Shown: in pieces, positions 8,314 to 60,900 of the stretch
Position numbering within the stretch: the stretch's first letter is position 1
Layout of the letters: every line of letters begins with the position of its first letter
Program-made: the position numbers and the translations under genes
The notes under the pieces: model-generated
What the model was told of the DNA's origin: nothing
The model's database searches: none
The model's input: only the letters and a program-made list of their open reading frames with translations
From: Pseudomonadota bacterium
GTDB taxonomy: Bacteria; UBA10199; 2-02-FULL-44-16; JAAZCA01
NCBI GenBank assembly: GCA_016927275.1
Contig: JAFGMW010000095.1
Span: 9,247-73,246 of the forward strand
Direction: 5' to 3'
Length of the DNA stretch: 64,000 nucleotides

Positions 8314-8739
8314 ATGAAGAAGACGGTGATATGCTTGGCAGTTCTCGCGTCCCTGCTCGCCCTCGCTCTGGCCGCCCATGCCCGCGCTGAGTGCAAGGTC
8401 GGCTCAAAGGCGCAGGTTCTCTGGAAGGGGAGCTGGTATCCGGCCTCGGTAAAGAAGATGAAGGGCGATCAGGCATACATCCACTATGACGGTTACAATA
8501 ACTCCTGGGACGAGTGGGTAAGCCCGGAGCGGATCAAGTGCACAGTCGCCGCCGCCGCGACGGCCAAACCCGCCTCGTTCTCGGAGGGCGACGCGGTATC
8601 GATCAAGTGGAAGGGCACATGGTACGATGCCCACGTGATCGGCGTGAATAAGAAAAAGGACTCCTGGAAGATCCACTACGACGGTTACAACAGCTCCTGG
8701 GACGAGTGGGTGGGTGCGGATCGCATCAGGACGAAGTGA
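8314..8739 (+). CDS. secreted protein with two tandem Tudor/Agenet-like (SH3-fold) repeats
   Basis: Signal peptide; two ~50-aa repeats (VLWKGSWYPASV...IHYDGYNNSWDEWVSPERI / IKWKGTWYDAHV...IHYDGYNSSWDEWVGADRI); RBS AAGGAGG upstream. Confidence 0.55.
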   Translation: MKKTVICLAVLASLLALALAAHARAECKVGSKAQVLWKGSWYPASVKKMKGDQAYIHYDGYNNSWDEWVSPERIKCTVAAAATAKPASFSEGDAVSIKWKGTWYDAHVIGVNKKKDSWKIHYDGYNSSWDEWVGADRIRTK

Positions 8740-11087: not shown

Positions 11088-12293
11088 TTAAAGGCTGATG
11101 TCCCTGACCGCGTTCCAGAAGATCGAGCGCGCTGGGTTTCTCCCTGACCCGCCGGCCTGCGCGAGCTCGCCGTTCTCCAGGACCACGATGTCGTAGCCGC
11201 GGTACCGCATGCAGTAAGAGGTGTAATAGCCCATGAACGTCCCGTAATGACCGACAGCCCCGCTGTCGTCGTAGATGCCGAGGCCGTATGAGACCGGCCA
11301 GGTCTCTATCTGTCCGTCCTTCATCTGCAGCCTCTCCTGCTGGGCTTCGGGGCTGATGAGCTCCCCCTCCTCGAGCGCCTTCGCCCAGATGAGAATATCG
11401 CCTATGGTGGAGATCAATCCCCCGGCGGCCCAGGCCCAGCCGGGGTTCATCGACAGAGAGAGGTCTGCGACCTGCCCGTCAGCCATGAGATATCCGCGGG
11501 CGAACGGCTCGGGCATCGCCGGGCTGTCGGGAAGCGAGGTGTCGTGCATGCCGAGGGGCTGAAGCAAACGGCTATTGACCTCGCTCGCATAGGAGTTCCC
11601 CGTCACCTGCTCGATGATGATCCCCTGGAGGATGAAGTTGGTGTTGCAGTATTCAAACTGCGTGTCCGGCGCGTACGGGGCCGGGTCGACGCTCTCTGCG
11701 CTCCACCTGAGCATCTCCACCGGGTCGACCTGCTCCAGCGGGTGCCCGGCGAATATCGTTGCCCCCTCCTGCGTGGCCAGGGAGTCCACCATCCCGCTGC
11801 GCATCTCGAGGATGTTGCGCAGCGTCATCGTCTCGCCGTAAGGGATTGTGAAGCCTAGATGGCCGGGGGCGAACCATCGGGCGATTATCCCGTCTATCGT
11901 GTCGTCGAGGCTGAGCTTCCCCTCGTCGACCAGCTGGAGGATGATTGTGGCTGTGAAGGTCTTGGTGACGCTGGCGATGCGGAAGAAGCGGTCGATCGCC
12001 ATCGGCTCGCCCTCCGCCGCGCCGTTGCCCGAGGCGTCCGCAATCTGCTGAGGGAGTGCCGCTGAACCGCATGCGCCGTACCATGTGGACCCGTTCGGGG
12101 CGCGCACGCCCATCACCGCCCCCGGGATCTCGAGCTCCTCCACCGACCGGCAGAGCGACTGATCGAGCTTCAGCGCCATTATCTGGTTGAAGCCGGAGCC
12201 TTCCCCCAAGCGGCACGAAACAATGCCGGCCGCGAGAAGGCCGCCCAGGAGAACGCCGAGGACCCTTGAAATACACAGGCCGCGTCTCTTCAT
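11088..12293 (-). CDS. beta-lactamase-family serine hydrolase (class C/PBP-like) lipoprotein
   Basis: SxxK active-site motif (ASVTKTFTATIILQL); lipoprotein-type signal (LLAAGIVSC); start set at internal ATG. Confidence 0.75.
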   Translation of the reverse strand: MKRRGLCISRVLGVLLGGLLAAGIVSCRLGEGSGFNQIMALKLDQSLCRSVEELEIPGAVMGVRAPNGSTWYGACGSAALPQQIADASGNGAAEGEPMAIDRFFRIASVTKTFTATIILQLVDEGKLSLDDTIDGIIARWFAPGHLGFTIPYGETMTLRNILEMRSGMVDSLATQEGATIFAGHPLEQVDPVEMLRWSAESVDPAPYAPDTQFEYCNTNFILQGIIIEQVTGNSYASEVNSRLLQPLGMHDTSLPDSPAMPEPFARGYLMADGQVADLSLSMNPGWAWAAGGLISTIGDILIWAKALEEGELISPEAQQERLQMKDGQIETWPVSYGLGIYDDSGAVGHYGTFMGYYTSYCMRYRGYDIVVLENGELAQAGGSGRNPARSIFWNAVRDISL

Positions 12294-12341
12294 ATCGGTC
12301 CTCTTAGCACGAATCCCGGGCCGTTGAAAACCCAACCATGT

Positions 12342-12411
12342 CCCCCCGTCGGACAGAGCCCCTGTCAGACGGAGCAAAAAACCCCTGGAGCCCCTGTCAG
12401 ACGGAGCAAAA
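12342..12411. repeat. three tandem copies (~32-bp period) of motif CCCCTGTCAGACGGAGCAAAA upstream of the hydrolase gene
   Basis: Two exact 21-bp copies at 12359-12379 and 12391-12411 plus a degenerate copy at 12342-12359; same core recurs as an inverted repeat at 15892-15950. Confidence 0.7.
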
Positions 12412-12581
12412 TGAATCAGCTTCTAACATATGGATATTATTAATAAATAAGGTTCGTTCACTCTCCTCAAGGCCCTGATCGGAAGCTGCCACTGTAAAAT
12501 CCCTTGAAAATCAGGATTTTCGTACTAGCATCCCTTCCACAATTTACAGCCACCACGAAACGAGGTCGGCAGGGAGGAAAC

Positions 12582-12776
12582 ATGGCTAACAGGGATACAC
12601 GGAACACCGGCAGGGCCAGCACTTTTCTGAACGTATCCGACGACAAGGTGTACGAGGCGATCAGGAAGCGCGCCTATGAGCTGTATTGCAAGAGGGGCCA
12701 CGCGAACGGCAACGACATGAAGGACTGGCTCGAGGCCGAGAGGCAGGTCAAGAAGGAGATGAACCTCGCGCGCTAG
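12582..12776 (+). CDS. DUF2934-family small protein
   Basis: KVYEAIRKRAYELYCKRGHANGNDMKDWLEAERQV matches DUF2934; start at ATG with AGGGAGGA RBS rather than upstream table start. Confidence 0.55.
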   Translation: MANRDTRNTGRASTFLNVSDDKVYEAIRKRAYELYCKRGHANGNDMKDWLEAERQVKKEMNLAR

Positions 12777-12806
12777 ATCGCGGGCTCGTCGATTTGAAAT
12801 GTTCGA

Positions 12807-12839
12807 ACAGGGAGGGGGATGCCCCTCCCTGTTTTTTTT
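12807..12839 (+). terminator. rho-independent terminator after DUF2934 gene
   Basis: acagggaggggg-atg-cccctccctgt hairpin followed by T8. Confidence 0.7.
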
Positions 12840-12870
12840 GCGTGAGATCATCGCGCCGGGAGAAAAAGAC

Positions 12871-14829
12871 ATGCCCGTCACCTGGAAGAGGACAGAGCTG
12901 GACGAGATGGACTGCATGCTCCGCGAGGCGTGGGAGCACAACGCACTCCACATGAACGAGGTTTCGGGCAGACCGCTGGCCCACGCCGACGGCGACGACC
13001 TCGACGGCGACGGCAACCGGGGCGAGCGCATCACCGTCTCAGAGACGGTGGGATACAAGCTCTTCATGGAACTCCTGATGGCGACGATGGCCCGAACGAG
13101 CGGCGACGCCGAACTCGAAACCAGGGCGATGGAGAATTTCGACAGGGCGTGGGGATGGGCGGAGCGGAACATGCAGCGCAGCGCCCTCGCATCTGCGTAC
13201 GATCCGGTCGCCGGGGCGCTCGTCCCGATACCGGAAGGCAAGCGCGACTCGCTCCTCGCGTGGCGATACGTGCCGGGCGCCGGGGTGATCCACCACGCAA
13301 AGAATCGTTCCGACGGCATCTTCATAGACGGCCTCGACGGCGCCCCCGACGGCGACCTCTTCACCGCCGCCTCGCTGAGATTGGCGGCGGTGCTCTGGCC
13401 CGAACGACAGGATTACCTCGCGGCGGCGGAGGATATCGCGGTGGACATCCGCGCAAAATACGTGGCCGAGATCGGCGGCGAGCCGTATCTGTTGGGCGGC
13501 GACGAGTTCGTGCGGATATCCGGCATCAATCCCTCGTACTCGTTCGAGGCGGTCTACGACATGATGGGCGAGCTCGACCCCTCTCACGCGGCCGACTGGC
13601 AGAGGCTCAAGCAGAGCTCCATGAAGGCGGCGGTGGCCGGCGCCGACTCCACGCTATCGGCCGGCGGACCCTACATGTCGAACGGCAGGACGATAGGCTT
13701 CAGGGCGAGGCGGATAGAGGGCAGCTCGAACATGCCGCCGAACTGGCTCACATACGACGGCTCGGGGTTCGGCGACAACGAGTGGTTCGATCCCATCGAC
13801 TGGATATCGGGCTGGGACGGGCTGCGCACCCTCTGGATGAAGGCCGCCTACTTTCTCTACGACGGGAACGAGGCTGCGCGCAGGTATCTGCAGGACGACG
13901 CCGGAACGAAGGAGGACTTCGGTCCCTACGGGTTCCTGAAGAATCATCTCCTGAAACACGGCAGGCTGCCGGCCGGCTTCGGCATAGACGGCTCCTCCTC
14001 AGGGCCCGAGCTCTCGGTGATGAACCTCACCGAACCCAACGCCTTTTCGCTCGGCATCTATCTCGGCTTCTTCTACGCGGCCGGCGACATCGAGGCCGCA
14101 TCCAGGATGCTGGGCGGGCTCGTCGACTCGTATCACACGCAGCAGGTCCCCGGGCCGATCGGTATCGGCGAAGGGACCTTCGCCGAGGTCCGCACCGAGG
14201 GCGACCTGGACTACTTCGGGGACTGCTGGGCCTGGTTCGGCATGGCGATGGCCCGCGGGGCGGTCGAGGACCTCTTCGGCCTCTACAGGGAGTGGCGCGC
14301 GGAGAACGTCATGCCGCCCGCTTCTCCCGCCCCCCTACTCCCCTCTTATTTCGAGGTGAAGCCGGGCGGGATGGAATTCGCGCGCGGCATGGACCTGATG
14401 AAATCGAACATGTGGATCTCGGCGTTCGACGGCTGCTCGAGAAAGCTCTTCGGCGGCTACGCCTGCGAGGGCCGCGCGAAGGAGTGGTATCTCGGCGGCG
14501 TGGGGATAGGGCTGGGGCGAAACCCCGCGTGGGGCATCGAGAGGGAATACGACGGGCTCTTCATCGACGCCCCGGGCGCGCAGGGCCGCGTGAAGATCGA
14601 GCTGCACACCGACCGCCGCATCTACGTTCACGAGGCGTCGGCATCCAACGCCGCCTCCATGTACGTCCCGTTCACCGCCTTCAGGGAAGAGATCGATTAC
14701 GCGCCGAAGGGCAGAAGCTTCGATCCGAAGGTGGATCGCGTGGGCAAGATCCAGGTGATCGGCCTGGGAGCGACCGCCGACGGGGAGGTGGAGTTCGTCC
14801 TCAAGGAAATCCGCGCAGTGAAGAAATAG
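12871..14829 (+). CDS. hypothetical protein, possibly (alpha/alpha)6-barrel glycoside-hydrolase-like
   Basis: 653-aa ORF with good coding character, Trp/Gly/Asp-rich segments reminiscent of glycoside hydrolases; no signal peptide; start placed after the upstream terminator. Confidence 0.45.
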   Translation: MPVTWKRTELDEMDCMLREAWEHNALHMNEVSGRPLAHADGDDLDGDGNRGERITVSETVGYKLFMELLMATMARTSGDAELETRAMENFDRAWGWAERNMQRSALASAYDPVAGALVPIPEGKRDSLLAWRYVPGAGVIHHAKNRSDGIFIDGLDGAPDGDLFTAASLRLAAVLWPERQDYLAAAEDIAVDIRAKYVAEIGGEPYLLGGDEFVRISGINPSYSFEAVYDMMGELDPSHAADWQRLKQSSMKAAVAGADSTLSAGGPYMSNGRTIGFRARRIEGSSNMPPNWLTYDGSGFGDNEWFDPIDWISGWDGLRTLWMKAAYFLYDGNEAARRYLQDDAGTKEDFGPYGFLKNHLLKHGRLPAGFGIDGSSSGPELSVMNLTEPNAFSLGIYLGFFYAAGDIEAASRMLGGLVDSYHTQQVPGPIGIGEGTFAEVRTEGDLDYFGDCWAWFGMAMARGAVEDLFGLYREWRAENVMPPASPAPLLPSYFEVKPGGMEFARGMDLMKSNMWISAFDGCSRKLFGGYACEGRAKEWYLGGVGIGLGRNPAWGIEREYDGLFIDAPGAQGRVKIELHTDRRIYVHEASASNAASMYVPFTAFREEIDYAPKGRSFDPKVDRVGKIQVIGLGATADGEVEFVLKEIRAVKK

Positions 14830-14849
14830 ATCCCCGGCTATTCAAATTT

Positions 14850-15782
14850 TCACGGACAGTTCGGGCCGACGGTCATGTGTAACTTCGTGCCCGCGGAGCA
14901 GCGGCGCAGGCCGATCGAGTCGTCGTATGCGTAGCCGTACACGGTCTTCTTGCACGCGGTGTGGATGTGTTCCACGTAGCCGGTGCCCACCACGGGGCCC
15001 GCCCTGCACTCCTCGGCGCCTATTGGCGGCGTGGGGCAGCAGTAGATCACCGGAGGGTCCGTGTCCTCGCCAAGACCCAGCCCTCCGTATGTGGGATAGT
15101 TGAATTTCTTGCAGGGCGAATAGCAACCGATAACAGGGGCGCCGGCGTCCTCCTTCACCCTGAGGTCTTCGTCAGCATACTCCGGAAAGACCGTGCCCCC
15201 CTGCCCCGCGCTCAAGTCGTCGGCGGTCGGACACTCCGCAAGGCTCAGGGCCGCGCAGTCCACGGCAGAACAGGGCTGACCCTGGTCGTCCAGCGTGTCG
15301 CCGGTGACCGCCACGGTGAACGGGAATGTGTATCCGTCCACGGCGCTCGAGTTCCAGTAGGTGTCGATCATCCTGTCCCCCTGCGGGGTGAATCCGCACT
15401 GTGTCTCATCCGCCAGCGTGCAGCCCCATGTCGCCTCGATCTTGGAGTCCACAGGCGGCGGGCAACCGCCGGCCGGGCACGGGTCGGAGCTCTGGCCGAT
15501 CTCGCAGTTCTCGCCGCTCGCGTCGCAGCCCTTCTTGGGCCAGAACCTGGTGGAGGCCTGGCCAGCCTCCGGGATATCGTAATCGTGATATGCGCCCGGC
15601 TCGATCTTCACAACATCGGGGGTCGAGGCCGGCATGTTCTGCTGCTGTATCCAGATGGCGTAGGCGCAGCTGTTGGTGACCCTCAGCCGCTTCGTCTGGG
15701 TGTCGTCGCCGCCCCCTCCGCCCCCCCCTCCGCACCCGCAGAGAAGAGCCACAGCCAGCGCCAGGCACAGCTTCTTATTCAT
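14850..15782 (-). CDS. thaumatin-like (PR-5 family) lipoprotein
   Basis: Lipobox LAVALLCGC; RVTNSCAYAIWI..FWPKKGCDASGENC..16 Cys pattern resembling thaumatin/osmotin fold; start at internal ATG (MNKK). Confidence 0.6.
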   Translation of the reverse strand: MNKKLCLALAVALLCGCGGGGGGGGDDTQTKRLRVTNSCAYAIWIQQQNMPASTPDVVKIEPGAYHDYDIPEAGQASTRFWPKKGCDASGENCEIGQSSDPCPAGGCPPPVDSKIEATWGCTLADETQCGFTPQGDRMIDTYWNSSAVDGYTFPFTVAVTGDTLDDQGQPCSAVDCAALSLAECPTADDLSAGQGGTVFPEYADEDLRVKEDAGAPVIGCYSPCKKFNYPTYGGLGLGEDTDPPVIYCCPTPPIGAEECRAGPVVGTGYVEHIHTACKKTVYGYAYDDSIGLRRCSAGTKLHMTVGPNCP

Positions 15783-15891
15783 AGATTCCCCCTCGTCGTT
15801 CCCGCGCTTATCGCATTGCGGGGGGTCCCAGGTCAAACGGATAGAGTCAACGGGCGATCCTGCCCGAGCCGACACAGACAAGCGTCAAAGC

Positions 15892-15950
15892 GTCAGACGG
15901 AGCAAAGTTAACTCATTGATCTTATTGTTTTTTATCTTGCTCCGTCTGAC
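15892..15950. promoter_or_regulatory. inverted repeat GTCAGACGGAGCAA-N31(AT-rich)-TTGCTCCGTCTGAC in divergent promoter region
   Basis: Perfect 14-bp inverted half-sites flanking an AT-rich spacer between divergent lipoprotein genes; followed by tandem AGCTCGTGTGAC x2. Confidence 0.55.
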
Positions 15951-16034
15951 AGCTCGTGTGACAGCTCGTGTCCATGAACCGAATTGACAACCCTCTCGAT
16001 CAGGAACATTATCCCCCACTAAAAGGAGGTGCGT

Positions 16035-17141
16035 ATGCGCACTTTTGGCAGGGGTATCGTGGCAATGGGTGCTGCATTGGTTCTGCTGTTCGGTCTGGCC
16101 GCATGCGGCGGAGGTGGCGGCACGCCTACGCCTACTGAGCCGACCGCGACCTACGGCGGGGCCGCGACCGCGGGGGACATCTTCGTGATCAAGATGGACT
16201 ATCCGGCAGTCGGCAAGGCGACCATCACGCGCTCTGAGACCGACGGCACGCTCGTGGGGTCGAAGGAGATGAGCTACACGGCCAACGGCACCCGCTATAC
16301 ATTCACCGACGAGGACAGCAATTCGTTCGAGGCTCTCATGGTCGCGGACACCATGCTCACCATGTTTCTGCCGGCCACTGACGAGAAGGACATCATCGTT
16401 GCGGTCATAGTGGATCCGGACATGACTTCGACCGCAGAGGCGGCCGCCATCCTGAAGAACCACGACTACATCCTCACGCAGTTCAGGCACGACGAGAAGG
16501 GCGTGAAATGGGTCTGGTCGAACGTGGACGCGGACGGCGTGGTTACGGGCCATAAAGCCAATGAAGGGAATACCCTGCCCTACGACCTCGATGACGTTGA
16601 CACGACCAATAACTTCGACCCCGGCATGGACGTGGACAACCTCGTGTACAACGCGGAGACGAGCGGCTTCACGCTCACGGTGGGCGACGAGATATGGACA
16701 TACTATTTCACGGAGTCCGGGCTGGGCGTCATCGACAAGGGGCCGGACAAGGGCATCCGCTTCAACATGATCAAGCCCGCGACATATGATCCGACCGGCA
16801 TGGTTGCAGTAGGAGACATCTACGACACGCTGTTTTACGGCCGCCGGTCCGAGACTGAGGAGGGAACGACGCAGGGAACGATAACGGTCACGGCTGTCAC
16901 GGCGAATTCCTTCACGGTCGACGTGGACAACGGCAGGGATCCTGTGATGACGGGCATCGTGATCACGGCCGACCTGAGCGATCTGTGGCGCGGCTTCTAC
17001 CGGCTGCCCGCCACCATAGATGCGGTGCCCCAGAACGCGGTGGTCCAGCTCGTCGGCTCGGACGCCATGATCTTTGCAGGCAAGGCCCCGGCCGCCAATC
17101 CGTGGCAATACGAATACGGCATCGGCGTAAAGCGGAAGTAA
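16035..17141 (+). CDS. hypothetical lipoprotein
   Basis: ATG with AAGGAGG RBS 5 nt upstream; lipobox LLFGLAAC followed by Gly/Thr/Pro linker. Confidence 0.6.
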   Translation: MRTFGRGIVAMGAALVLLFGLAACGGGGGTPTPTEPTATYGGAATAGDIFVIKMDYPAVGKATITRSETDGTLVGSKEMSYTANGTRYTFTDEDSNSFEALMVADTMLTMFLPATDEKDIIVAVIVDPDMTSTAEAAAILKNHDYILTQFRHDEKGVKWVWSNVDADGVVTGHKANEGNTLPYDLDDVDTTNNFDPGMDVDNLVYNAETSGFTLTVGDEIWTYYFTESGLGVIDKGPDKGIRFNMIKPATYDPTGMVAVGDIYDTLFYGRRSETEEGTTQGTITVTAVTANSFTVDVDNGRDPVMTGIVITADLSDLWRGFYRLPATIDAVPQNAVVQLVGSDAMIFAGKAPAANPWQYEYGIGVKRK

Positions 17142-17187: not shown

Positions 17188-17619
17188 ATGAAGAAGCTTT
17201 TGGCGATGCTGGTGGCAGCGGCGTTCGCTCTGCCTGTGCTCGCGCAGGCGGAGAAGTGCAAAGAGCCGGAGAAGACGGATCTGAAGGCCGGCATGAAGGT
17301 CGTGGCGCAGTGGCAGGGCGACAGCTGGTGGCTGGCGAAGATCGACTCGATCGGCAAAAACGGCCTCATCGACGTGACCTACTCCGACAACACCAGGGGA
17401 AGGAACAAAAGGCAGGATCAGGTCGCGCGCTACATCTACTCCGACACCAGCGCCCCGCCCTGCTTCAAGGAGGGCGACAAGGTCGTGGCGCAGTGGAAGG
17501 GCGACAACTGGTGGAAGGCCCGCATCGACAGGATAGAGGGCGACAAGGCGAAGATCACCTACACCGACGGGGAGAAGGGCACGCGCAAGCTCACGGAGAT
17601 GGTCCGCGACCCGTGGTGA
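17188..17619 (+). CDS. secreted protein with two tandem Tudor/Agenet-like repeats (paralogue of 8314-8739)
   Basis: Signal peptide; repeats VVAQWQGDSWWLAKIDSI...DVTYSD / VVAQWKGDNWWKARIDRI...KITYTD. Confidence 0.55.
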   Translation: MKKLLAMLVAAAFALPVLAQAEKCKEPEKTDLKAGMKVVAQWQGDSWWLAKIDSIGKNGLIDVTYSDNTRGRNKRQDQVARYIYSDTSAPPCFKEGDKVVAQWKGDNWWKARIDRIEGDKAKITYTDGEKGTRKLTEMVRDPW

Positions 17620-17668: not shown

Positions 17669-17818
17669 ACGACGATCCAAATCAGGCTGTCGGATAATAT
17701 TTTGACACATCGGGTAAAGTTTAACCCAGCCAGACTCGGCCGATGCCTGTCGAAACTATATTTTCTTTATAAATCAATGTGATAAAAGCTAACGCGCACT
17801 TGCAACCCGCTCTGCAGA

Positions 17819-17834
17819 TGGCATGCTATTTGCT
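17819..17834 (+). promoter_or_regulatory. candidate sigma-54 (-24/-12) promoter
   Basis: TGGCATGCTATTTGCT matches TGGCAC-N5-TTGCW consensus; ~60 nt upstream of the delta-60 lipoprotein start in an AT-rich intergenic region. Confidence 0.45.
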
Positions 17835-17892
17835 CATCATTGTTGTTGTGCTGTAACTCTTGTTTGGGTAGTCATCTCCCGTGAGGGAAAGG

Positions 17893-19590
17893 ATGAAAAA
17901 GTGTCTTCTACATAGAGCGATGATTTTGATGGCCGTAGTGCCGCTTGCATACGTACTGGCGGCCGGATGCGGTTCAGGCAGCCTCGATTATTTCGGAGAC
18001 GGCAGCGGCTTGGAGCAACCCCCTGAGGGGCCCTCGCCGCCTGTCCCGCCACGTACCCCTGTGGTGCTCTCGCTCTCTGCGACTCCGTGGACTCTCGAGA
18101 ACAGCATAGAGTGGAGGGTGGTATCCGGCGACGCGGACTCCTTCAATCTCGCATGGCAAGTGGACGAGGAGGCCAGCGCCTCAGTGATTGCTTTGTCCGA
18201 GGCCGCCGGAGAGATCGAGGACGTGTCCTCTCCTTTTGTGCATGACGGCCTGTCCAACAACGGCGTGGAATACTGCTACAGGATCGTCCCCGTCTTTGAC
18301 GGCGAAAAGGGCGACACCTCCGACGAGGTCTGCGCCATGCCCGACACCGTAGGAATTCCGGACGACTCCTTCGGGGCCGAAGGAGTGATCACGGACGATC
18401 TGGGCGGCGGCCTCGATGAAATCGGCTACGCGGTCGGGCACGACGCCTCAGGCAGGGCGCTGGTCGCAGGCTATGAGTTCAACGCGGCCCTGGGTTCGAA
18501 GATGGCGCTGTGGCGCTTTCTTTCCGACGGATCGCCCGATGCCGGCTTCGGCGCAGGAGGCCTTGCCAGCTACGACGTAGGCAAGCCCGACAGGATCTGG
18601 GACGGCAATGCCCTTGCGATAGACGCGAGCGGCAGGGTGATCGTGCCCGGGTTCATCAACGACGCTCCCCTTGTGAACACCGCGACGATCTGGAGATACG
18701 GCCCCGACGGGGCGCTGGACGCAACTTTCGACGGCGACGGAATCTATCGGTTTGCCAATCCGCACGAGGGCGGGAGGGGAAATTACGACTGGATGTACGA
18801 CGTCAAGGTCGATCCGAGCGGGAGGATAGTGATCGCGGGCATCAGCTTCTTCGCAGCCGACTGGCTGCTGCACATGAGCATCTGGAGGCTGCTCGACGAC
18901 GGCACGGTCGATCCCGCGTTCAACGGCGGCGTGCCCGTGGATTACATAAATCCCGGCAGCGGGAGCGACTACGGCTTTGCGCTTGAGCTCGATGCGGATG
19001 GAAGGATAGTGATCGGCGGTTCCAGCATGGAAGGAGGCTGGCCCAGGGGAAGGGTTGCGCTCTGGAGATACCTCGACGACGGCACGCCGGACCCCTCGTT
19101 CAACGGCGGCACACCGATCATAATGACCAGGGTCGCCGGGGACACGGACGACGCGATCAGGGCGCTTGTGATCGATGCGGAGGAAAGGATCCTCGCAGCG
19201 GGGTCGAGGGACAACGCAAGTGGCGGCAAGGACCTCTGCATCTGGAGATTCCTCGAAGACGGGTCGCTCGATCCGGCCTTCGGCGCCGCCGGGGAGATCA
19301 GGTATGACGCAGGCGCAGCAAACGAGGACATCGCCTATGGGATCGCAGAGGACGTGCACGGCAGGATAGTGGTCGGCGGAGAGATGGGCGAAAAGGCGGT
19401 GGTCCACCGCTACCTCGAAGATGGGTCGCTGGACCCGGCCTTCGGAGAGGGCGGAGTCTATGAGTATGATAAAAGCGGCGACGACGCTGCCGGCGGCATT
19501 ACGATAGATTCCCGCGGCAGGATCCTTACCACGGGCCACATCAAGGGCCCGGGCGGCAATCTCGACATGGCGGTCTGGAGACTCAAGTAG
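17893..19590 (+). CDS. delta-60-type repeat domain lipoprotein
   Basis: Lipobox VLAAGC; >=7 repeats of ~55-60 aa built around [LIV]WR[FYL]xxDGSxDxxF(G/N)GG(G) (ALWRFLSDGSPDAGFGAGG, IWRYGPDGALDATFDGDG, IWRLLDDGTVDPAFNGG, LWRYLDDGTPDPSFNGG, IWRFLEDGSLDPAFGAAG, HRYLEDGSLDPAFGEGG). Confidence 0.65.
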   Translation: MKKCLLHRAMILMAVVPLAYVLAAGCGSGSLDYFGDGSGLEQPPEGPSPPVPPRTPVVLSLSATPWTLENSIEWRVVSGDADSFNLAWQVDEEASASVIALSEAAGEIEDVSSPFVHDGLSNNGVEYCYRIVPVFDGEKGDTSDEVCAMPDTVGIPDDSFGAEGVITDDLGGGLDEIGYAVGHDASGRALVAGYEFNAALGSKMALWRFLSDGSPDAGFGAGGLASYDVGKPDRIWDGNALAIDASGRVIVPGFINDAPLVNTATIWRYGPDGALDATFDGDGIYRFANPHEGGRGNYDWMYDVKVDPSGRIVIAGISFFAADWLLHMSIWRLLDDGTVDPAFNGGVPVDYINPGSGSDYGFALELDADGRIVIGGSSMEGGWPRGRVALWRYLDDGTPDPSFNGGTPIIMTRVAGDTDDAIRALVIDAEERILAAGSRDNASGGKDLCIWRFLEDGSLDPAFGAAGEIRYDAGAANEDIAYGIAEDVHGRIVVGGEMGEKAVVHRYLEDGSLDPAFGEGGVYEYDKSGDDAAGGITIDSRGRILTTGHIKGPGGNLDMAVWRLK

Positions 19591-19727
19591 CGCAGCTCAA
19601 ATCCGTCTCAGAACGCGAACCCTATCTCGGTCACGAGGCAGTTGAAGTGGAGCCAGCCGGCGGTTCGGCGCTTTCTTTCCCTGCGATTGTCGGCTATAGA
19701 TGCTGCATCAATAAAAAGGGGGTCATT

Positions 19728-33451: not shown

Positions 33452-33661
33452 GCCCATCCCATCGCATCGAAGCAAGGGAAGGTCAACCGTTCTGACACGA
33501 CATCGAACCTGCCACCTGCAGATACCTGATGAACCGACGATGACGCTCCGACCGGGGTCTCCCAGGTGTATATGCGGAAGGCTCAAGCGGGACGCGGGCC
33601 AGAGAGGCCCTGAAACTGGAGAACCCCTGCCTGCCCGCCAAAGCGTTACTCTCGCGAATGA

Positions 33662-33862
33662 TCAGGGCCTCTCTCTGTAAGCCTCTTTGCGGTGGGAAGC
33701 TGCGATCATCGATACGACCTTTGTCTCTTCGTCGATTATGTAGAAAAAGCGCCAGTCGCCTACGCGATAACGCCATGTGGCCGGATGCCAATCCCTGAGG
33801 CGCTTGATGTTGGAGCCAAAGTGAGGCTCATTCTTCAATTGCGGACAAACATGCTCCTGCAA
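33662..33862 (-). CDS. RelE/ParE-family type II toxin (start uncertain; possibly N-terminally degraded)
   Basis: C-terminal NIKRLRDWHPATWRYRVGDWRFFYIIDEETKVVSMIAASHRKEAY matches RelE/ParE core; in-frame upstream 45 codons (to a TGA near 34000) are toxin-like (AIKRRIIA...) but contain no ATG/GTG; table start is TTG. Confidence 0.6.
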   Translation of the reverse strand: MQEHVCPQLKNEPHFGSNIKRLRDWHPATWRYRVGDWRFFYIIDEETKVVSMIAASHRKEAYRERP

Positions 33863-34155
33863 TTTCTCCTCAAGGATGCCCTTGCGATGCCTTGCAATGA
33901 TCCGGCGTTTTATTGCACGATCGATGCCAGATATGGACTGAAAAATACCGTGAGGAATTGAGGGGATTTGACGCTGGACAACAGTGATTGTGCACAGGGC
34001 TGTTCAGTTTTGTGTTGCAGTGTTCAGACTTATGAATCCCATATATATCTAACACTTATCATTGCTCCGTCCGACGGGGATATGTATGACGGGGATGTGA
34101 CGCGGTTTCGCCTATCGCCGAAATTTGATATAAGTCCGGCTGAAGGGAGCGAACA

Positions 34156-35364
34156 ATGAACAAAATACTCCTATCGATCATGTCGGTTATATTCATGTGC
34201 GCCTGCAGCTCAGGGGGCTTCAGTCAGGCCGACCTCCAGGAGATCCTCGATGCGGAATGGCAGGCGTACTCAGCCGGCAAAACAAATTTCGGCGGCGGGC
34301 TCGCCATGCAGATAATCTCGCCCAGGGGCGACTATTTCATATCCACAGGGATGGGAGAGGGCATGAGCAGGTCTCATCGCTTTCGCGCGGCCAGCGTCAC
34401 GAAGACCTTCACCGCCGCCGGCATAATGCTGCTCGAGCAGCGCGGGAAGCTCGATATCGAGCATTACATCACGGACAATATTCCGGGAACGACTTCGTCG
34501 TACGTTCCGGACGCCGCCGAATACGACATCCCGAACAAGGGCCGGATCACCATCAGAATGCTCCTCATGCATCGCGCCGGCGTATTCGACCTGACAAATC
34601 AGGACATCGTAGAAAACGACGCCTCCCGGTCGGAGCCCTACGTCAACGGCAATTACATCGAGTACACGCTTGCCGGGGACGGCGGTCATCAGTTCACATT
34701 CGACGAACTCTTCGGCGTCATATCGAGGGACGACCAGGTCGGCTTCGACGGCGCGCCTGATTCGCAGTACAGGTATTCGGACACGGGATATTCATTGCTC
34801 GCGCTGATTCTCGAGCGGGTCTCCGGAAAGTCCTACGTTGATTTTATCCGCGATGAATTTCTGACTCCAAACTGCCTCGACGATACGACCCTTCCGTGGG
34901 AGGGGACGGATAAGACCCTGCCTGATCCTTTCGTATCCGGCTATATGTGGATGAACGACGAGCTCTCGGACGTGACCCTCTCCAACATGTCGGCATTCGT
35001 CGGGAACGGCAACATCATCACGACGCCCCTTGACCTCGCGACGTGGTGCCAAAGGCTTTTCCACGGGGAGGCCGGCCTCACGAGCGAGACGGTTGCAGCG
35101 ATGATGGACGGCCTCCCGAGCATCGGCACGTCGACATACGGCCTCGGCATCGAGCATATGGAATCGGTGGGCTACGGGCACGGAGGTGCACAGGAAGGGT
35201 ATCTTACGGAAATGCGCTACAAGCCCGATTCGGACGTCTGCTACGTGCTGATGTCGAACGTCTGGGACTGCGAGAGCTGCCCTGCGAGCCTGAGCTCGCT
35301 CGGGACAGAGCTCTCGACGATCGTCGGGATATCGAAGAAGGTCCTCGCGAAGATGGGTTATTGA
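34156..35364 (+). CDS. beta-lactamase-family serine hydrolase lipoprotein (paralogue of 11088-12293)
   Basis: Lipobox FMCACSSGG; SxxK motif ASVTKTFTAAGIMLL. Confidence 0.75.
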   Translation: MNKILLSIMSVIFMCACSSGGFSQADLQEILDAEWQAYSAGKTNFGGGLAMQIISPRGDYFISTGMGEGMSRSHRFRAASVTKTFTAAGIMLLEQRGKLDIEHYITDNIPGTTSSYVPDAAEYDIPNKGRITIRMLLMHRAGVFDLTNQDIVENDASRSEPYVNGNYIEYTLAGDGGHQFTFDELFGVISRDDQVGFDGAPDSQYRYSDTGYSLLALILERVSGKSYVDFIRDEFLTPNCLDDTTLPWEGTDKTLPDPFVSGYMWMNDELSDVTLSNMSAFVGNGNIITTPLDLATWCQRLFHGEAGLTSETVAAMMDGLPSIGTSTYGLGIEHMESVGYGHGGAQEGYLTEMRYKPDSDVCYVLMSNVWDCESCPASLSSLGTELSTIVGISKKVLAKMGY

Positions 35365-35516: not shown

Positions 35517-36278
35517 CTATCTTTCAGCAACGACGAGCATTTCGAAATCATCGCTGGTCAGCTTGTCGTTTCTTGAAAACGCTCCGAGCTTTGCACCAAA
35601 GATATCGATCTTCTTGAACCCGAGCGTCTTGAGAAGCCATGTTATCTCGCTTGGCACGTAATAACGCTCGTTGCACTGCAACTCTTTTTTATTGCCCAAA
35701 TCATCCTCGAGCACAACGGTGTTATGGTCACGGAAAGTCATAAGATCAAATGAGCAGTCCTTACACTGGGACTGGCCTTCTTTCTGTGCCGACTCATAGA
35801 ATTCATTGACAGAATGAAACAGCGGGAACAGTCCGTTTAATGTGGTGAAGATGAACTTGCCTTTGTCTTTCAGCGCCTTTGTTGCGTTCCTGAGGATCTC
35901 AAAGTTCATCTCATCTGTCTCCATGAGAGAAAACCCGCCTTCGCACAGCATGATTGCCAGATCAAATTCACCGTCAAAGGAAAGATCGCGGGCGTCCTGT
36001 ATTTGGAAGTCAATGGTCAATCCTGACTCCTGTGCCTTTTCCCTTGCCCATTTGATCTGGTTCTCGGAAAGATCGACTCCGGTCACACTATATCCTCTTT
36101 TTTTCAACTCAATCGAGTGGCGGCCGGTGCCGCAACCGATGTCTATGATCTTTAACGATTTATCGCGGGCTATCTCCTGTTCAATAAAATCGCACTCGCC
36201 CATAGTGCCCTGGACAAAACACTCGTTGTCGTATTTGTGTGCGTAATTTTCATATAACCTTTCATACCACTGTTTCAT
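35517..36278 (-). CDS. class I SAM-dependent methyltransferase (markedly lower GC than surroundings)
   Basis: Motif I IIDIGCGTGRHS, post-I VTGVDLS; start at internal ATG (MKQWYERLY) with AGAGGT RBS; AT-rich codon usage contrasts with neighbours. Confidence 0.8.
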   Translation of the reverse strand: MKQWYERLYENYAHKYDNECFVQGTMGECDFIEQEIARDKSLKIIDIGCGTGRHSIELKKRGYSVTGVDLSENQIKWAREKAQESGLTIDFQIQDARDLSFDGEFDLAIMLCEGGFSLMETDEMNFEILRNATKALKDKGKFIFTTLNGLFPLFHSVNEFYESAQKEGQSQCKDCSFDLMTFRDHNTVVLEDDLGNKKELQCNERYYVPSEITWLLKTLGFKKIDIFGAKLGAFSRNDKLTSDDFEMLVVAER

Positions 36279-36420
36279 ATTTTTACCTCTTCGTGTAGAT
36301 AACCTCATTGGCCGATTGTTATCAAATTAAAAAAGTTTTCATGCAGTGACCCGAAAAAGGGGACGGCCCCCGGTGGAAAATGAGTTGAAATCATTCCGAT
36401 CGGAAAATGTCTTCTGCTCA

Positions 36421-36459: not shown

Positions 36460-36536
36460 TGGGGTGGCTAGTGGGATTTGAACCCACGACCCTCTGAGCC
36501 ACAGTCAGATGCGCTAGCCGCTGCGCCATAGCCACC
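36460..36536 (-). tRNA. tRNA-His (anticodon GTG) with G-1 and encoded CCA
   Basis: Minus-strand sequence GGTGGCTATGGCGCAGCGGCTAGCGCATCTGACTGTGGCTCAGAGGGTCGTGGGTTCAAATCCCACTAGCCACCCCA folds as cloverleaf; anticodon loop CTGTGGC; extra 5' G pairing with discriminator C is His-specific. Confidence 0.85.
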
Positions 36537-36547
36537 ATCTTTAAAAA

Positions 36548-36580
36548 CAAATTCCAAATTCCAAATTCCAAATCCCAAAT
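36548..36580. repeat. tandem heptamer repeat (AAATTCC)x3-4 upstream of tRNA-His
   Basis: caaattccaaattccaaattccaaatcccaaat; related motif recurs at 36740-36775. Confidence 0.7.
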
Positions 36581-36597
36581 AAAATTGAAAACCAAAA

Positions 36598-36731
36598 CTG
36601 GTGGGATTTGCCCACTCCGTTGCCGCCCTCCTGCGCTTACCTCCGGTAAGCTCCAGCGGGTCCTCGACGCCGCCTATGATTTTTCGACATTCGAAAAATC
36701 ATGCGGTCGTCGGGACTGCGCCATAGCCACC
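36598..36731 (-). pseudogene. partial tRNA-His duplicate / tRNA-like remnant interrupted by a ~95-nt structured insert
   Basis: Minus strand begins GGTGGCTATGGCGCAG (identical to tRNA-His 5' acceptor+D arm) and ends ..GGAGTGGGCAAATCCCACCAG (T-arm-like), but acceptor 3' strand and anticodon arm are replaced; contains perfect palindrome ATGATTTTTCGA-cat-TCGAAAAATCAT (36676-36702) and hairpin GCTTACC-gga-GGTAAGC; flank (ctgcgccatagccaccRtctttaaaaacaaattccaaat) duplicated. Confidence 0.45.
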
Positions 36732-50567: not shown

Positions 50568-50686
50568 ATATGTTATCGGCGGAATTTTGAGGAAGTTGCG
50601 GGATTTGGGAGAGCTGAAAGCGGGGATGATATATTTAAGGATATCAATGAGTTAAATATTAAGGAGCGATGGGAATGCGAACCAAT

Positions 50687-57753: not shown

Positions 57754-57925
57754 GGCCGCGCTTGTAGCAGAAAGGCCTCACCCCTGGCAACCGGCTTTCG
57801 GGAAAATCGCGGGCCAGGGGGATATTCCTGCTTGATAACCGGACCTGAAAAAAGTTAGCAACTGCGCTCCGCTTCCTCCGATAACAAAGGCCCCGGGGCA
57901 AAGACCCCTCACAGAGGACTGCTCA

Positions 57926-60900
57926 ATGGTGAGAATCAAAGACGGAGAAGGAAGGATAAGCACTATCCCGCCAGGACCCATGGGCGACGAGGCGGCGCAG
58001 CCTGCGAAAGCGCCGGAGAGCGGCCGGCCGAGGGACAGCTACGCCCCTCCCCACCGCGGCCCGAGGATCATCGGCTCCCGCCGCAAGACCGGCAGCGAGC
58101 GCATATTCGAGGAGAGATACAAGAGCGATTACGGGATGGAGTCGGTCTTCTTCCTCGCCCGTCAGATAGGCGCCGACGACCCGCTCGGCAAGCGCGAGAG
58201 CGAAGCGCGGCACGTCATGACCAGGGCGCTCAGGATGCTGCGCGACGAGGCGAAGAATCACGCCGAGGGCTGGAGGCCGGGCGACAGCATCATAGAGAGG
58301 GCGCTGAGGACCGGTTACCGCGAATACCACGGAAACTCCCCGATGTCCGGCGAGCTCTTCTACGTCTTCGACCATTTCAAGTGCCTCATCGAGGACGAGG
58401 CGGAGGAGCTGGGCGTGGCCGGCAAGCTGAGCCGCAAGAAGGCGGCGGCAAGGGAAAGGCTCGGCTCGCCCGAGGCGTTCGCCCGCCGGGCCCTGAGGGC
58501 GGTCGAGCTCGCGGGCCGCGCAGGCGTGATCGCGCAGGAGATGCCGGACGGCGCCGAGGGGGCGGAGGGCGCGATCGATCTCGCCACGGAGGCCGAGGCC
58601 CTCGCCGCAAAGCTGAAGGGGCTTGGGGGCGACACAAACTCCATCGCGCGCAGCCTGAAGAGGAGGGAGGCGCTCGAGGACGCCATGGTCGCGATGGAGC
58701 GCATCGAGGCGATCGAGGATGATATCTCGCTCGCATACCTGCGCTCCGGCGCCGGGGAGAACTCGAGGCTGGCAGGCTCGATGATCGGGGAGCGCGCGCC
58801 GGAGATCGACAGGTGGTTCGCGGAGAACGGGGCCCTGCTCAGGGCGGACCGGGCGTCGGTACAGGGCGCGCTCGAGAACTACGTGGCCCTGTGGCTTGCC
58901 GAGAACCAGGGGCGCCCAGCCGGGCGGATCGGGTTCTCGAGCCGTTCCCTCAGGGGCGCCGCGGCGTCGCTGCGCTCTTCGTTGATGGGCCCGGACGAAC
59001 TCGGCAGGACGAGCGACGCCCTCAAGAGGCTCGTCTGGGAGCTGGCGAGGGGCGTGCCGGGCGACGACGGCGAAGAGACGACCTCCTCCTCGATGGACTA
59101 CGGGCAGTTCGCGCAGTCGGTGGGAAAGGGCATAGTCGATTCGGCCCAGCGCTTCCGAGAATCGATCATCGACGGGACTGCCGAGGGGGCCCCGGTCTCG
59201 GAGGAGGAGCGCAGGAAGGCGGCCGACGCCTTCCACGGCCTCTTCATGCAGTACGCCATCGGCGCCGCAGCCGCGCACCCCGGCAGGGAGCTGAGGGATG
59301 CGCTGATCGAGAACGGGCTCGAGCCCGAGATCACGAACTCCATATACCGGAACCCGGCGCTCGCGGCGGCGTTCGGCACGGCCGCGATCGAGATGCTCTC
59401 GAGGTTCTTCTCGAAGGACGTGAGCGCCAGGCCATCCCCGCCGATCGAGGCCCTGGTGCCCGCATCGCTCGCGCCCGATGCGGCGCCTGCGCAGGCGCCG
59501 GCAGACGGTGAATACGTGGAATACTCCGACGGGATGGCCATGCGCGACTTCGTGCGAAGGATGCCCTTCACCGTCACGAAGGCGCTGGCGGCAAAGTTCA
59601 AGGAGGCCACGGGCTACCCGATCGACCGATTCCTCCTCTGGGGATCGAGGAGGGCCCACTCCGGCGAGATGAGCGAGGCGATGTGGTCTTTTCTCATCAA
59701 CGCAGCAGCAGATGAGGGCGGGCTGAGGGACCTCGTCCGCTCGTACCCGCCCGAGGGGCAGAGCCGGGAGGAGTGGTTCGACAAGGTCGCCGCGATGGGG
59801 ACGTTCGAGGAGCTGGCCGCCTTCGCGGCAAACAACAAGCCCGCTCGCTCGAACAGCTCCGACTGGGAGAGATACGTCGAGCACTGCGAGAAGACGGGGA
59901 TGCCGGAGGAGATAACGGTCGAGCCAAGGACGAAGGTGGCGCTCAGGGCCGTCATACCTGCGCTGGCCTTTCTCAAGGAAGAGGCTGCGAAATACGGGAT
60001 GGCGGTGGACGTGTGGGACTACCTCGCGGCGATATACCCCGCAGCGAGGAGGATGAGACAGTCCGCGAAGGACGGCGAGATAATCATCAAGGTCCCCTCG
60101 TTCATGGCGAGGACCGCGTTCCAGAACTGGAGCCTGGAGAGCTGGGCGCGCAGGATAAGCGCCGAAAATCTCATCATCAACGTGGTGAAGTCCACCGTAG
60201 AGAGGCACAGCGGCGGTCATGTCGAGCTGGCCGAGCGCTGGAACATGCGAAAGTACACCAAGCCGCTCGCCAACACAGACCCGGAACTGGAGCGGATGCT
60301 CACCGACTTCGGCGAATTCCTCCGCTTCGTCCGCGTGCTCGACAGCTCGGGCCTGATCGCGGACAAGAGCGGCAACCGGCTGAGCTACGCCCAGGAGCCT
60401 GTGCAGAGCAGGTTTGCCGCCCGGATAGAGTTCGACCACTCCACTTACCTGAAGGCGGACAAGCCCTACTTCCCCGACGACGAGAGGCTCTTCACCGAGG
60501 CCAAGAGGGGCATCTACAGGTCGGCGCTCGAGATCGCCGGCGAGTTCATAGGGAACCTCAAGCTCCTTCCGCGGAATACCGCGATAAAAAAGGCGGACGG
60601 GACCGAGGTCACCGCGGAGGACCTCGTCAGGGAGCTGGCCGAGTACGCCAGGCGGGAGAGCTACTACCGCTGGAGCCTGCGGCACAACGATTCGATCCCC
60701 TACGCCTCGGACGACTACAGGAAGGAGATCCGCGAGTTCTTCTCGGAACTGAGGAGATGGACCCGCGGGATCGTCTACAACTCCAACATACAGGGCACGA
60801 TCTTCACCGGCCACGGGCCCACGAGATTCGTTGCGGCGAGCAGGCTCGAGGGGCACAGGGCCGGCTTCGAGCGCAGCGCCCTGCCGGTCCTCTACTTCGA

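Follow-up and report, generated by a model that had tools for sequence, protein, structure and literature searches.

Short, oriented sequences that recur in promoter regions are best known as the operator and activator arrays of transcription regulators. NtrC occupies paired sites three helical turns apart at glnAp2, AraC/RhaS-type regulators use asymmetric 17-bp half-sites arranged as direct or inverted repeats, and the Escherichia coli FadR consensus is built on a GTC-N-GAC core. Among short repeats of other kinds, the Neisseria DNA uptake sequence (GCCGTCTGAA) occurs about once per kb, including within genes, and inverted pairs of it occur; integron attC sites are imperfect hairpins bounded by R''/R' boxes (RYYYAAC ... 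GTTRRRY). The element considered here is a motif with a 14-mer form, GTCAGACGGAGCAA, and a 15-bp oriented form, YGTCNGACGGAGCAA, that recurs in a 64-kb stretch (the window) of contig JAFGMW010000095.1 from a Pseudomonadota bacterium. The motif is real, statistically solid and lineage-restricted, and it is a familiar kind of element. It fits no named family, showing in part what is expected of regulon sites and in part what is expected of miniature inverted-repeat transposable elements (MITEs). Judged from its sequence and setting, it is most likely a docking site for a DNA-binding protein, an element of an ordinary kind.

Motif copies and their placement

The exact 14-mer is found at 12364-12377(+), 12396-12409(+), 15892-15905(+) and 15937-15950(-), and a one-mismatch copy, GTCGGACGGAGCAA, lies at 34062-34075(-). 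These five occurrences at up to 2 mismatches compare with 0.60 expected in 64 kb, a number reached by 0 of 100 shuffles. Permitting 3 mismatches adds a single match, at chance level and within a gene. The window total is six copies (four exact, one with one mismatch, one degenerate), distributed over three divergent intergenic regions, loci A, B and C. A weight-matrix scan is bimodal, with true sites at 27 bits or more, the next-best window match at 13.6 and all else at or below 18; the 9-mer GTCNGACGG has no occurrence in the 64 kb outside motif copies.

The consensus YGTCNGACGGAGCAA was built on seven full copies from two genomes, the second of which is described below, and 13 of its positions are invariant. 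It consists of a small palindrome, GTC-N-GAC, joined to an asymmetric GGAGCAA extension. The centre base of the palindrome is free, and the flanks of the copies are unrelated. Copy C, read on the plus strand as CCGTCCGACGG, forms an 11-nt perfect palindrome (CCGTC-N-GACGG); outside it, strict conservation is limited to the right half (GACGGAGCAA) and the GGAGCAA extension.

All eight copies at the five loci of both genomes are intergenic, at a coding density of about 90%; the open reading frame (ORF) set used for these calls covers 91% of the window. A long TTG-started ORF across 12346-12377 was rejected as an artefact, the start of blaA being the ATG at 12293. Divergent regions make up about 32% of intergenic length by a rough estimate, which gives p ~0.03 for finding all three window loci in such regions. 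The features of the three loci are as follows.

Locus A, between blaA and a DUF2934 gene (12582-12776, plus strand)
11088..12293, minus strand: blaA, encoding a PF00144 beta-lactamase-family lipoprotein, downstream of A1-A3
12347..12361, plus strand: degenerate copy A1, CGTCGGACAGAGCCC, 10/14 identity to the core
12356..12379, plus strand: 24-nt unit GAGCCCCTGTCAGACGGAGCAAAA with core copy A2 (12363-12377), its end 70 nt from the blaA ATG (12293, minus strand)
12388..12411, plus strand: second 24-nt unit, identical to the first, with core copy A3 (12395-12409), 32 nt past A2
12408..12465, no strand: AT-rich tract, directly adjoining the GCAA side of A3

Locus B, between the thaumatin-family gene and a 368-aa gene
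14850..15782, minus strand: thaumatin-family (PF00314, E 9e-17) lipoprotein gene, downstream of B+
15880..15895, plus strand: two tandem copies of AAGCGTCA, running into B+; the outer, imperfect part of the left palindrome arm
15891..15905, plus strand: core copy B+, CGTCAGACGGAGCAA; on the minus strand it faces the thaumatin-like gene, whose ATG (15782) is 109 nt off
15906..15936, no strand: AT-rich spacer of 31 nt, holding ATCAATGAGTTAA (15908-15920, minus strand)
15937..15951, minus strand: core copy B-, TGTCAGACGGAGCAA; on the plus strand it faces the 368-aa lipoprotein gene, whose ATG (16035) is 84 nt off
15943..15971, plus strand: 2.4 tandem copies of the 12-mer TGACAGCTCGTG, overlapping the end of B- and stopping about 12 nt before the predicted -35 hexamer
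15984..16012, plus strand: predicted sigma-70-type promoter of the 368-aa lipoprotein gene, TTGACA-17-CATTAT, by consensus match only
16035..17141, plus strand: 368-aa lipoprotein gene with no family match, downstream of B-

Locus C, between a truncated ParE-like ORF (33662-33862, minus strand) and blaC
34062..34076, minus strand: core copy C, CGTCGGACGGAGCAA, 80 nt ahead of the blaC ATG (34156)
34156..35364, plus strand: blaC, encoding a second PF00144 lipoprotein, 32% identical to that of blaA, downstream of C

Read as TTGCTCCGTCNGAC, every copy in the window faces a lipoprotein gene, with the ATG following after 54-109 nt: 54, 70 and 102 nt for the copies at blaA, 109 nt for the thaumatin-like gene, 84 nt for the 368-aa gene and 80 nt for blaC. 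Each of the four products has a signal peptide and a lipobox (IVSC in blaA, LCGC in the thaumatin-like protein, LAAC in the 368-aa protein and MCAC in blaC). The initial annotation had placed the motif upstream of secreted-protein genes, and every window copy agrees, including that at locus C, which was absent from its list. Across the two genomes, a gene begins 51-109 nt downstream of six of the seven full copies, in one shared orientation. Predicted sigma-70-type promoters, among them TTGAAA-16-TAGCAT at 12504-12531 in locus A, fall outside the motif sites, not inside them.

The three tandem copies of about 32-bp period that had been proposed upstream of blaA are in fact two identical 24-nt units (GAGCCCCTGTCAGACGGAGCAAAA) with a period of 32; the third, A1, is only degenerate, and its 14-mer (GTCGGACAGAGCCC) begins at 12348, 16 nt ahead of A2, in keeping with the period of 16 reported by Tandem Repeats Finder (TRF). 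At locus B, the predicted perfect inverted pair in the divergent promoter region is confirmed: the two arms are 14 nt long, 100% identical and separated by the 31-nt AT-rich spacer, with their centres 45 bp apart. A 9.5-kb contig from an independent assembly of the same sample (L001, from SRR13394437) is identical at all four copies that it covers and spans loci A and B in an unchanged arrangement.

At 62% GC, the window is a piece of ordinary chromosome (genes for L21, L27, Obg, RsfS and RNase E/G, and tRNA-His). Phage and plasmid collections gave no match to the motif, and longer or paired motif patterns in these searches gave no matches beyond one in coding sequence, none of them real. Viral contigs searched with the 14-mer gave at least 120 single matches of the kind expected by chance. 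A search of a literature library with motif 12-mers returned no paper, and the 10-mer matches were 16S rRNA sequences. Scans with an 18-mer, CTGTCAGACGGAGCAARA, found 17 single matches in genome contigs and 25 in metagenome contigs, two collections that do not include the source genome; this is about the chance number, and most matches are in long open frames; the handful of intergenic ones were likewise taken as chance. Four intergenic 18-mer matches with window-like architecture (L132, L150, L151 and L153), near sigma-54-like promoters, were dropped, the total number of matches being no more than chance would give and promoters being usual in intergenic DNA anyway. Since flanks vary, the 18-mer is stricter than the core (the second genome reads TTCGTCAGACGGAGCAAAC), and these scans are uninformative on the spread of the 15-mer core.

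The motif in related genomes

Related loci were fetched through protein homologues, and one of them, L166 (GCA_021810905.1, 21 kb, 50% GC), carries the motif; L167 is an identical copy from another run. L166 encodes a blaA homologue of 58% identity and has two motif copies, GTCCGACGGAGCAA at 15707 and GTCAGACGGAGCAA at 19622, against 0.02 expected in 21 kb. The copies share 29 nt (AATKCGTCNGACGGAGCAARCTTWGTGTT) as direct repeats, 86% identical and 3.9 kb apart. Their surroundings include toxin-antitoxin-like, SIR2, DUF6036 and nucleotidyltransferase-type genes. Only the copy at 19622, 22 nt past the DUF6036 gene and 51 nt ahead of a 408-aa gene, lies upstream of a gene, one of the two. Between the window and L166, which differ by 12 points in GC, the core alone is shared, and the centre base and flanks vary. 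Such core-only conservation points to constraint from a bound protein, and away from a repeat that was copied passively.

The motif is absent from about 108 kb in eight further related contigs (L164, L165, L168, L170, L171, L173, L174 and L176). Orthologous intergenic regions did not lend themselves to comparison: identities of at most 58-78% were seen for homologues of a 676-aa protein, of blaA and of a Tudor-like protein of 143 aa, and the order of genes differs.

The relatives also carry repeats of their own. A repeat of about 200 nt with long complementary arms (CGGCCGGATTATCGCGTTTTGGTCCTGCCGG ... CCGACAGGACCAAAACGCGACAACCCG) occupies two intergenic regions of the metagenomic scaffold L168 (9030-9235 and 18160-18365); it is unrelated to the motif and could be a MITE or a structured RNA. 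At 9070-9290 in L166, a near-perfect palindrome with arms of about 90 nt (GGAACTCATTTCAAAATCC...GGGCAATCC) lies just upstream of a 217-aa gene that precedes the blaA homologue.

Possible regulator site or recombination site

The reading we favour, tentatively and at somewhat less than even confidence, is that a transcription regulator whose gene lies outside the window binds the motif as an oriented site. It is favoured because of the intergenic-only placement, the consistent orientation and distance in six of seven copies, the four lipoprotein targets and a geometry of the cooperative type. We infer that a sequence-specific DNA-binding protein would contact the 15-bp oriented site, that this protein would be a regulator, and that the sites, lying in promoter regions and read as TTGCTCCGTCNGAC, would be directed at the controlled gene from 51-109 nt ahead of its ATG; in the window, the genes so controlled would be the four lipoprotein genes. 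Where several sites stand together, binding could be cooperative. The blaA array has two full sites at a spacing of 32 bp, or three helical turns, along with a weak third. At locus B, a bend at the IHF-like sequence of the spacer could join the two inverted sites into one complex serving both divergent promoters. The spacer sequence ATCAATGAGTTAA agrees, save for its first base, with a consensus of the integration host factor (IHF) type, WATCAANNNNTTR.

As a separate observation, the 13-mer ATCAATGAGTTAA occurs at two places in the window (15908-15920, minus strand, and 50643-50655, plus strand) against 0 expected. The second lies about 76-88 nt upstream of a 1054-aa HEAT-repeat gene (start 50567, minus strand) and, with its preceding T, fits the IHF-type consensus WATCAANNNNTTR exactly. 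This sequence may be a second shared cis element.

Like known operator and activator arrays, these are short, oriented promoter-region sites with a 32-bp tandem, an inverted pair and an IHF-like sequence in between, and they lie upstream of the predicted core promoters. They differ in being almost invariant instead of graded, and in that one L166 copy is upstream of no gene. The likeness to GntR/FadR operators lies in the GTCNGAC core with its free centre, extended to CCGTC-N-GACGG in copy C; however, only the GACGGAGCAA half is strict, the extension is asymmetric and no GntR-family gene is nearby.

Several observations weigh against a regulator site. Thirteen of 14 positions never vary, whereas a regulator usually has stronger and weaker sites in a graded series, and the sample is small, at five loci. 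The opposite orientation also faces genes, 129-199 nt off, and orientation is less decisive because all three window regions are divergent. In L166, the copy at 15707-15720 is flanked by the stop codons of a convergent gene pair, the 408-aa protein downstream of the other copy is without a signal peptide, and blaA is the sole gene family common to the window and L166. Homologues of blaA with 52-66% identity (in L166, L168, L170, L171 and L173) lack the motif upstream in all five contigs, which argues against a conserved regulon. The initial annotation advised looking for a nearby regulator, and a scan of about 50 window proteins found no transcription-factor domain apart from that of a cold-shock protein; DUF2934 was considered as a candidate regulator and rejected, there being no functional literature on it. 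Its proposal of a shared transcription-factor site defining a regulon of exported proteins therefore survives in part. A non-random intergenic element does stand at several promoter regions and at four lipoprotein genes, but no regulator was found in the window, blaA homologues elsewhere have no upstream site, and the L166 copies are at convergent or non-exported genes.

The other proposal of the initial annotation, a small repeat element, may also be right. In the main rival reading, which we consider less likely than the first, the motif marks the ends of a miniature non-autonomous mobile element, or the sites of a recombinase or transposase encoded elsewhere. The stretch 15877-15972 would then be a palindromic, MITE-like insertion of about 60-100 bp, the other copies being solo or tandemly duplicated ends. 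Like a MITE, the 59-bp unit 15892-15950 has perfect 14-nt terminal inverted repeats with an imperfect extension and an AT-rich interior, and the element is patchy in relatives. AGC stands on each side of the unit as a possible 3-bp target duplication, although this match is weak and would arise by accident 1 time in 64. Beyond the 14 nt, each arm runs on imperfectly into a short tandem duplication (AAGCGTCA x2 and TGACAGCTCGTG x2.4), and such duplications adjoin the GTCN side of several copies. The near-invariant sequence, its presence in two genomes and absence from about 108 kb of eight contigs, and the copy between convergent genes in L166 would suit a mobile element as well. On the other side, the window and L166 contain neither copies with a shared interior nor a transposase parent: the unit is single of its kind, the remaining copies, whose flanks are unrelated, are solitary or tandem ends, and nothing beyond the core is common to them, so that no full-length element family emerges. 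Transposase, integrase and invertase genes are absent from the 64 kb of the window and the 21 kb of L166, and the phage and plasmid collections hold no match.

Copies might also act as substrates over longer distances. Inverted copies (12394-12415 versus 15931-15952), forming a 22-nt inverted repeat of 91% identity around 3.5 kb of the window, or the 29-nt direct repeats around 3.9 kb of the toxin-antitoxin-like/SIR2 region in L166, could be substrates for inversion or deletion. The genes between the window copies, however, include ordinary chromosomal ones (an RluA-type pseudouridine synthase, TrmO and a cold-shock protein), and the L001 assembly has both sites in unchanged arrangement, with no sign of inversion. 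A bolder and improbable version is that the 15-mer is the site of an undescribed recombinase or transposase system of uncultured deltaproteobacteria-like lineages, acting in trans on chromosomal segments. Inverted copies bound a 3.5-kb block with DUF2934, GH8-like and thaumatin-like genes, as well as 18 kb of genes for exported proteins, and direct copies bound the 3.9-kb toxin-antitoxin-like block of L166. If this were true, gene blocks could be inverted or excised and lipoprotein genes re-paired with promoters, giving shufflon-like surface variation.

Other classes of repeat share less with the motif. Like repetitive extragenic palindromic (REP) sequences and their paired forms (REPINs), it is a short intergenic repeat in which inverted pairs are possible; unlike them, it is not a foldable palindrome of 20-40 nt (only 7-11 nt with a 1-nt centre), and the window has no Y1 transposase gene. 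In L171, inverted pairs of a different repeat, GGGGACACAATACTTAATTCC, at 17760-17870 and 18630-18730 flank a gene for a 192-aa Y1 transposase of REP-associated tyrosine transposase (RAYT) type, a REPIN-like arrangement unrelated to the motif. With the Neisseria uptake sequence, the motif has an 8-mer, CCGTCTGA, and inverted pairs in common, but its six copies in 64 kb are clustered and none is coding. The ends of the locus B palindrome, GTCAGAC and GTCTGAC, are not the boxes of an attC site, and there is no integrase gene. Overlaps of 7-10 nt with the Tn3/Tn402 inverted repeats, the PilR/AlgR sites and the Neisseria uptake sequence are not counted as evidence.

Promoter and RNA readings, neighbouring features and meaning

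Could the motif itself be a promoter? CGTC and TCTGA resemble the -10 elements of promoters read by extracytoplasmic function (ECF) sigma factors, and both occur in TTGCTCCGTCTGAC, where they could provide the -10 of envelope lipoprotein genes, the class of gene that lies downstream. In copy C and both L166 copies (L166a and L166b), AACAC stands 5-6 nt before TTGCTCC and resembles a GAAC -35 element. AAC and CGTC are, however, 13-14 nt apart, as against 16-17 nt in ECF promoters, and a GAAC-like -35 is missing altogether from A2, A3, B+ and B-. The ATG follows after anything from 51 to 109 nt, and neither tandem copies 32 nt apart nor a copy between convergent genes resembles a core promoter. 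An ECF promoter is thus very unlikely. A sigma-70 reading, with TTGCTC as the -35, was set aside, TTGCTC-N17 being followed by a weak -10-like hexamer only at copy C and L166b, as judged by eye.

Sigma-54 was considered in two ways. A sigma-54 reading of the motif was rejected on spacing, and as enhancers the sites would need a -24/-12 promoter (GG-N10-GC, TGGCAC-N5-TTGC) 70-200 nt away, of which there is none at 12250-12620 or 15740-16080. The sole candidate is a 9/12 match, TGGCATCGATCGTGCA, at 33914-33929(-), near copy C. Away from the motif, the best sigma-54-type match in the window, TGGCATGCTATTTGCT (11/12, 17819-17834, plus strand), lies about 45 nt before a DUF5122 beta-propeller lipoprotein gene (17881); CTGTCGGA (17687) and CTGTCGAA (17746) precede the match by about 130 and 70 nt. 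At least one gene for an exported protein is probably transcribed with sigma-54 in this organism.

The strong fold of locus B bears on whether the motif acts as RNA, in a leader, a small RNA or an antitoxin-like repeat. The stretch 15876-15975 has a single-stranded DNA folding energy of -21.9 kcal/mol (z = -5.1), and the inverted pair would form a hairpin. GGAG followed by an ATG and a 10-codon ORF occurs after A3 and C, and the 32-nt tandem units are superficially like RNA antitoxin repeats. Yet other copies lack these mini-ORFs, which are not conserved, GTC-N-GAC is unable to form a hairpin, no common structure surrounds the copies, and both orientations occur relative to neighbours. No endoribonuclease toxin gene follows the array. 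An Rfam covariance-model search of the window matched tRNA-His alone, and the motif loci gave only microRNA hairpins at noise level. Of all the readings, an RNA-level element is the one that we find hardest to credit.

Several neighbouring features stand apart from the motif. Beside copy C, at 33483-34060, the ParE-toxin-like ORF of 66 aa matches the C-terminal part of the profile only and has no evident antitoxin ORF; it is probably a decayed toxin-antitoxin locus. The thaumatin family (PF00314), found here in a bacterial lipoprotein, is better known from plants and fungi. Two small secreted proteins of 141 and 143 aa (8314-8739 and 17188-17619, both plus strand) have signal peptides and are built of Tudor-knot/Agenet-like domains, whose usual role is that of chromatin readers in eukaryotes; 169 metagenome homologues were found at E<=0.001, with a tight clade 67-78% identical to the 143-aa protein. 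A heptamer microsatellite (CAAATTC-like, about four units, 36534-36600) lies directly upstream of tRNA-His (36460-36535, minus strand). An adjoining methyltransferase gene (35517-36308) has a third-position GC of 0.57, compared with about 0.85, and is possibly foreign DNA located at a tRNA. An ORF of 1112 aa with no family match (57923-61261, minus strand), with GC fractions of 0.89 at first and 0.61 at third codon positions (GC1 and GC3), encodes a highly repetitive protein rich in Gly, Ala, Asp and Glu or else is a mis-framed call.

If the motif is a regulator's operator, it would single out a few envelope proteins under common control, namely two AmpC-like serine hydrolases, a thaumatin-like lipoprotein and a lipoprotein without a family, in a lineage that metagenomes alone have revealed. 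The 15-bp site would then be a precise bait for the regulator, by DNA affinity purification sequencing (DAP-seq) or by co-occurrence across genomes. If it is instead a recombination or mobile-element site, it would mark movable or invertible blocks of surface-protein genes. Its value lies in offering a handle on an uncultured organism, not in a new principle.

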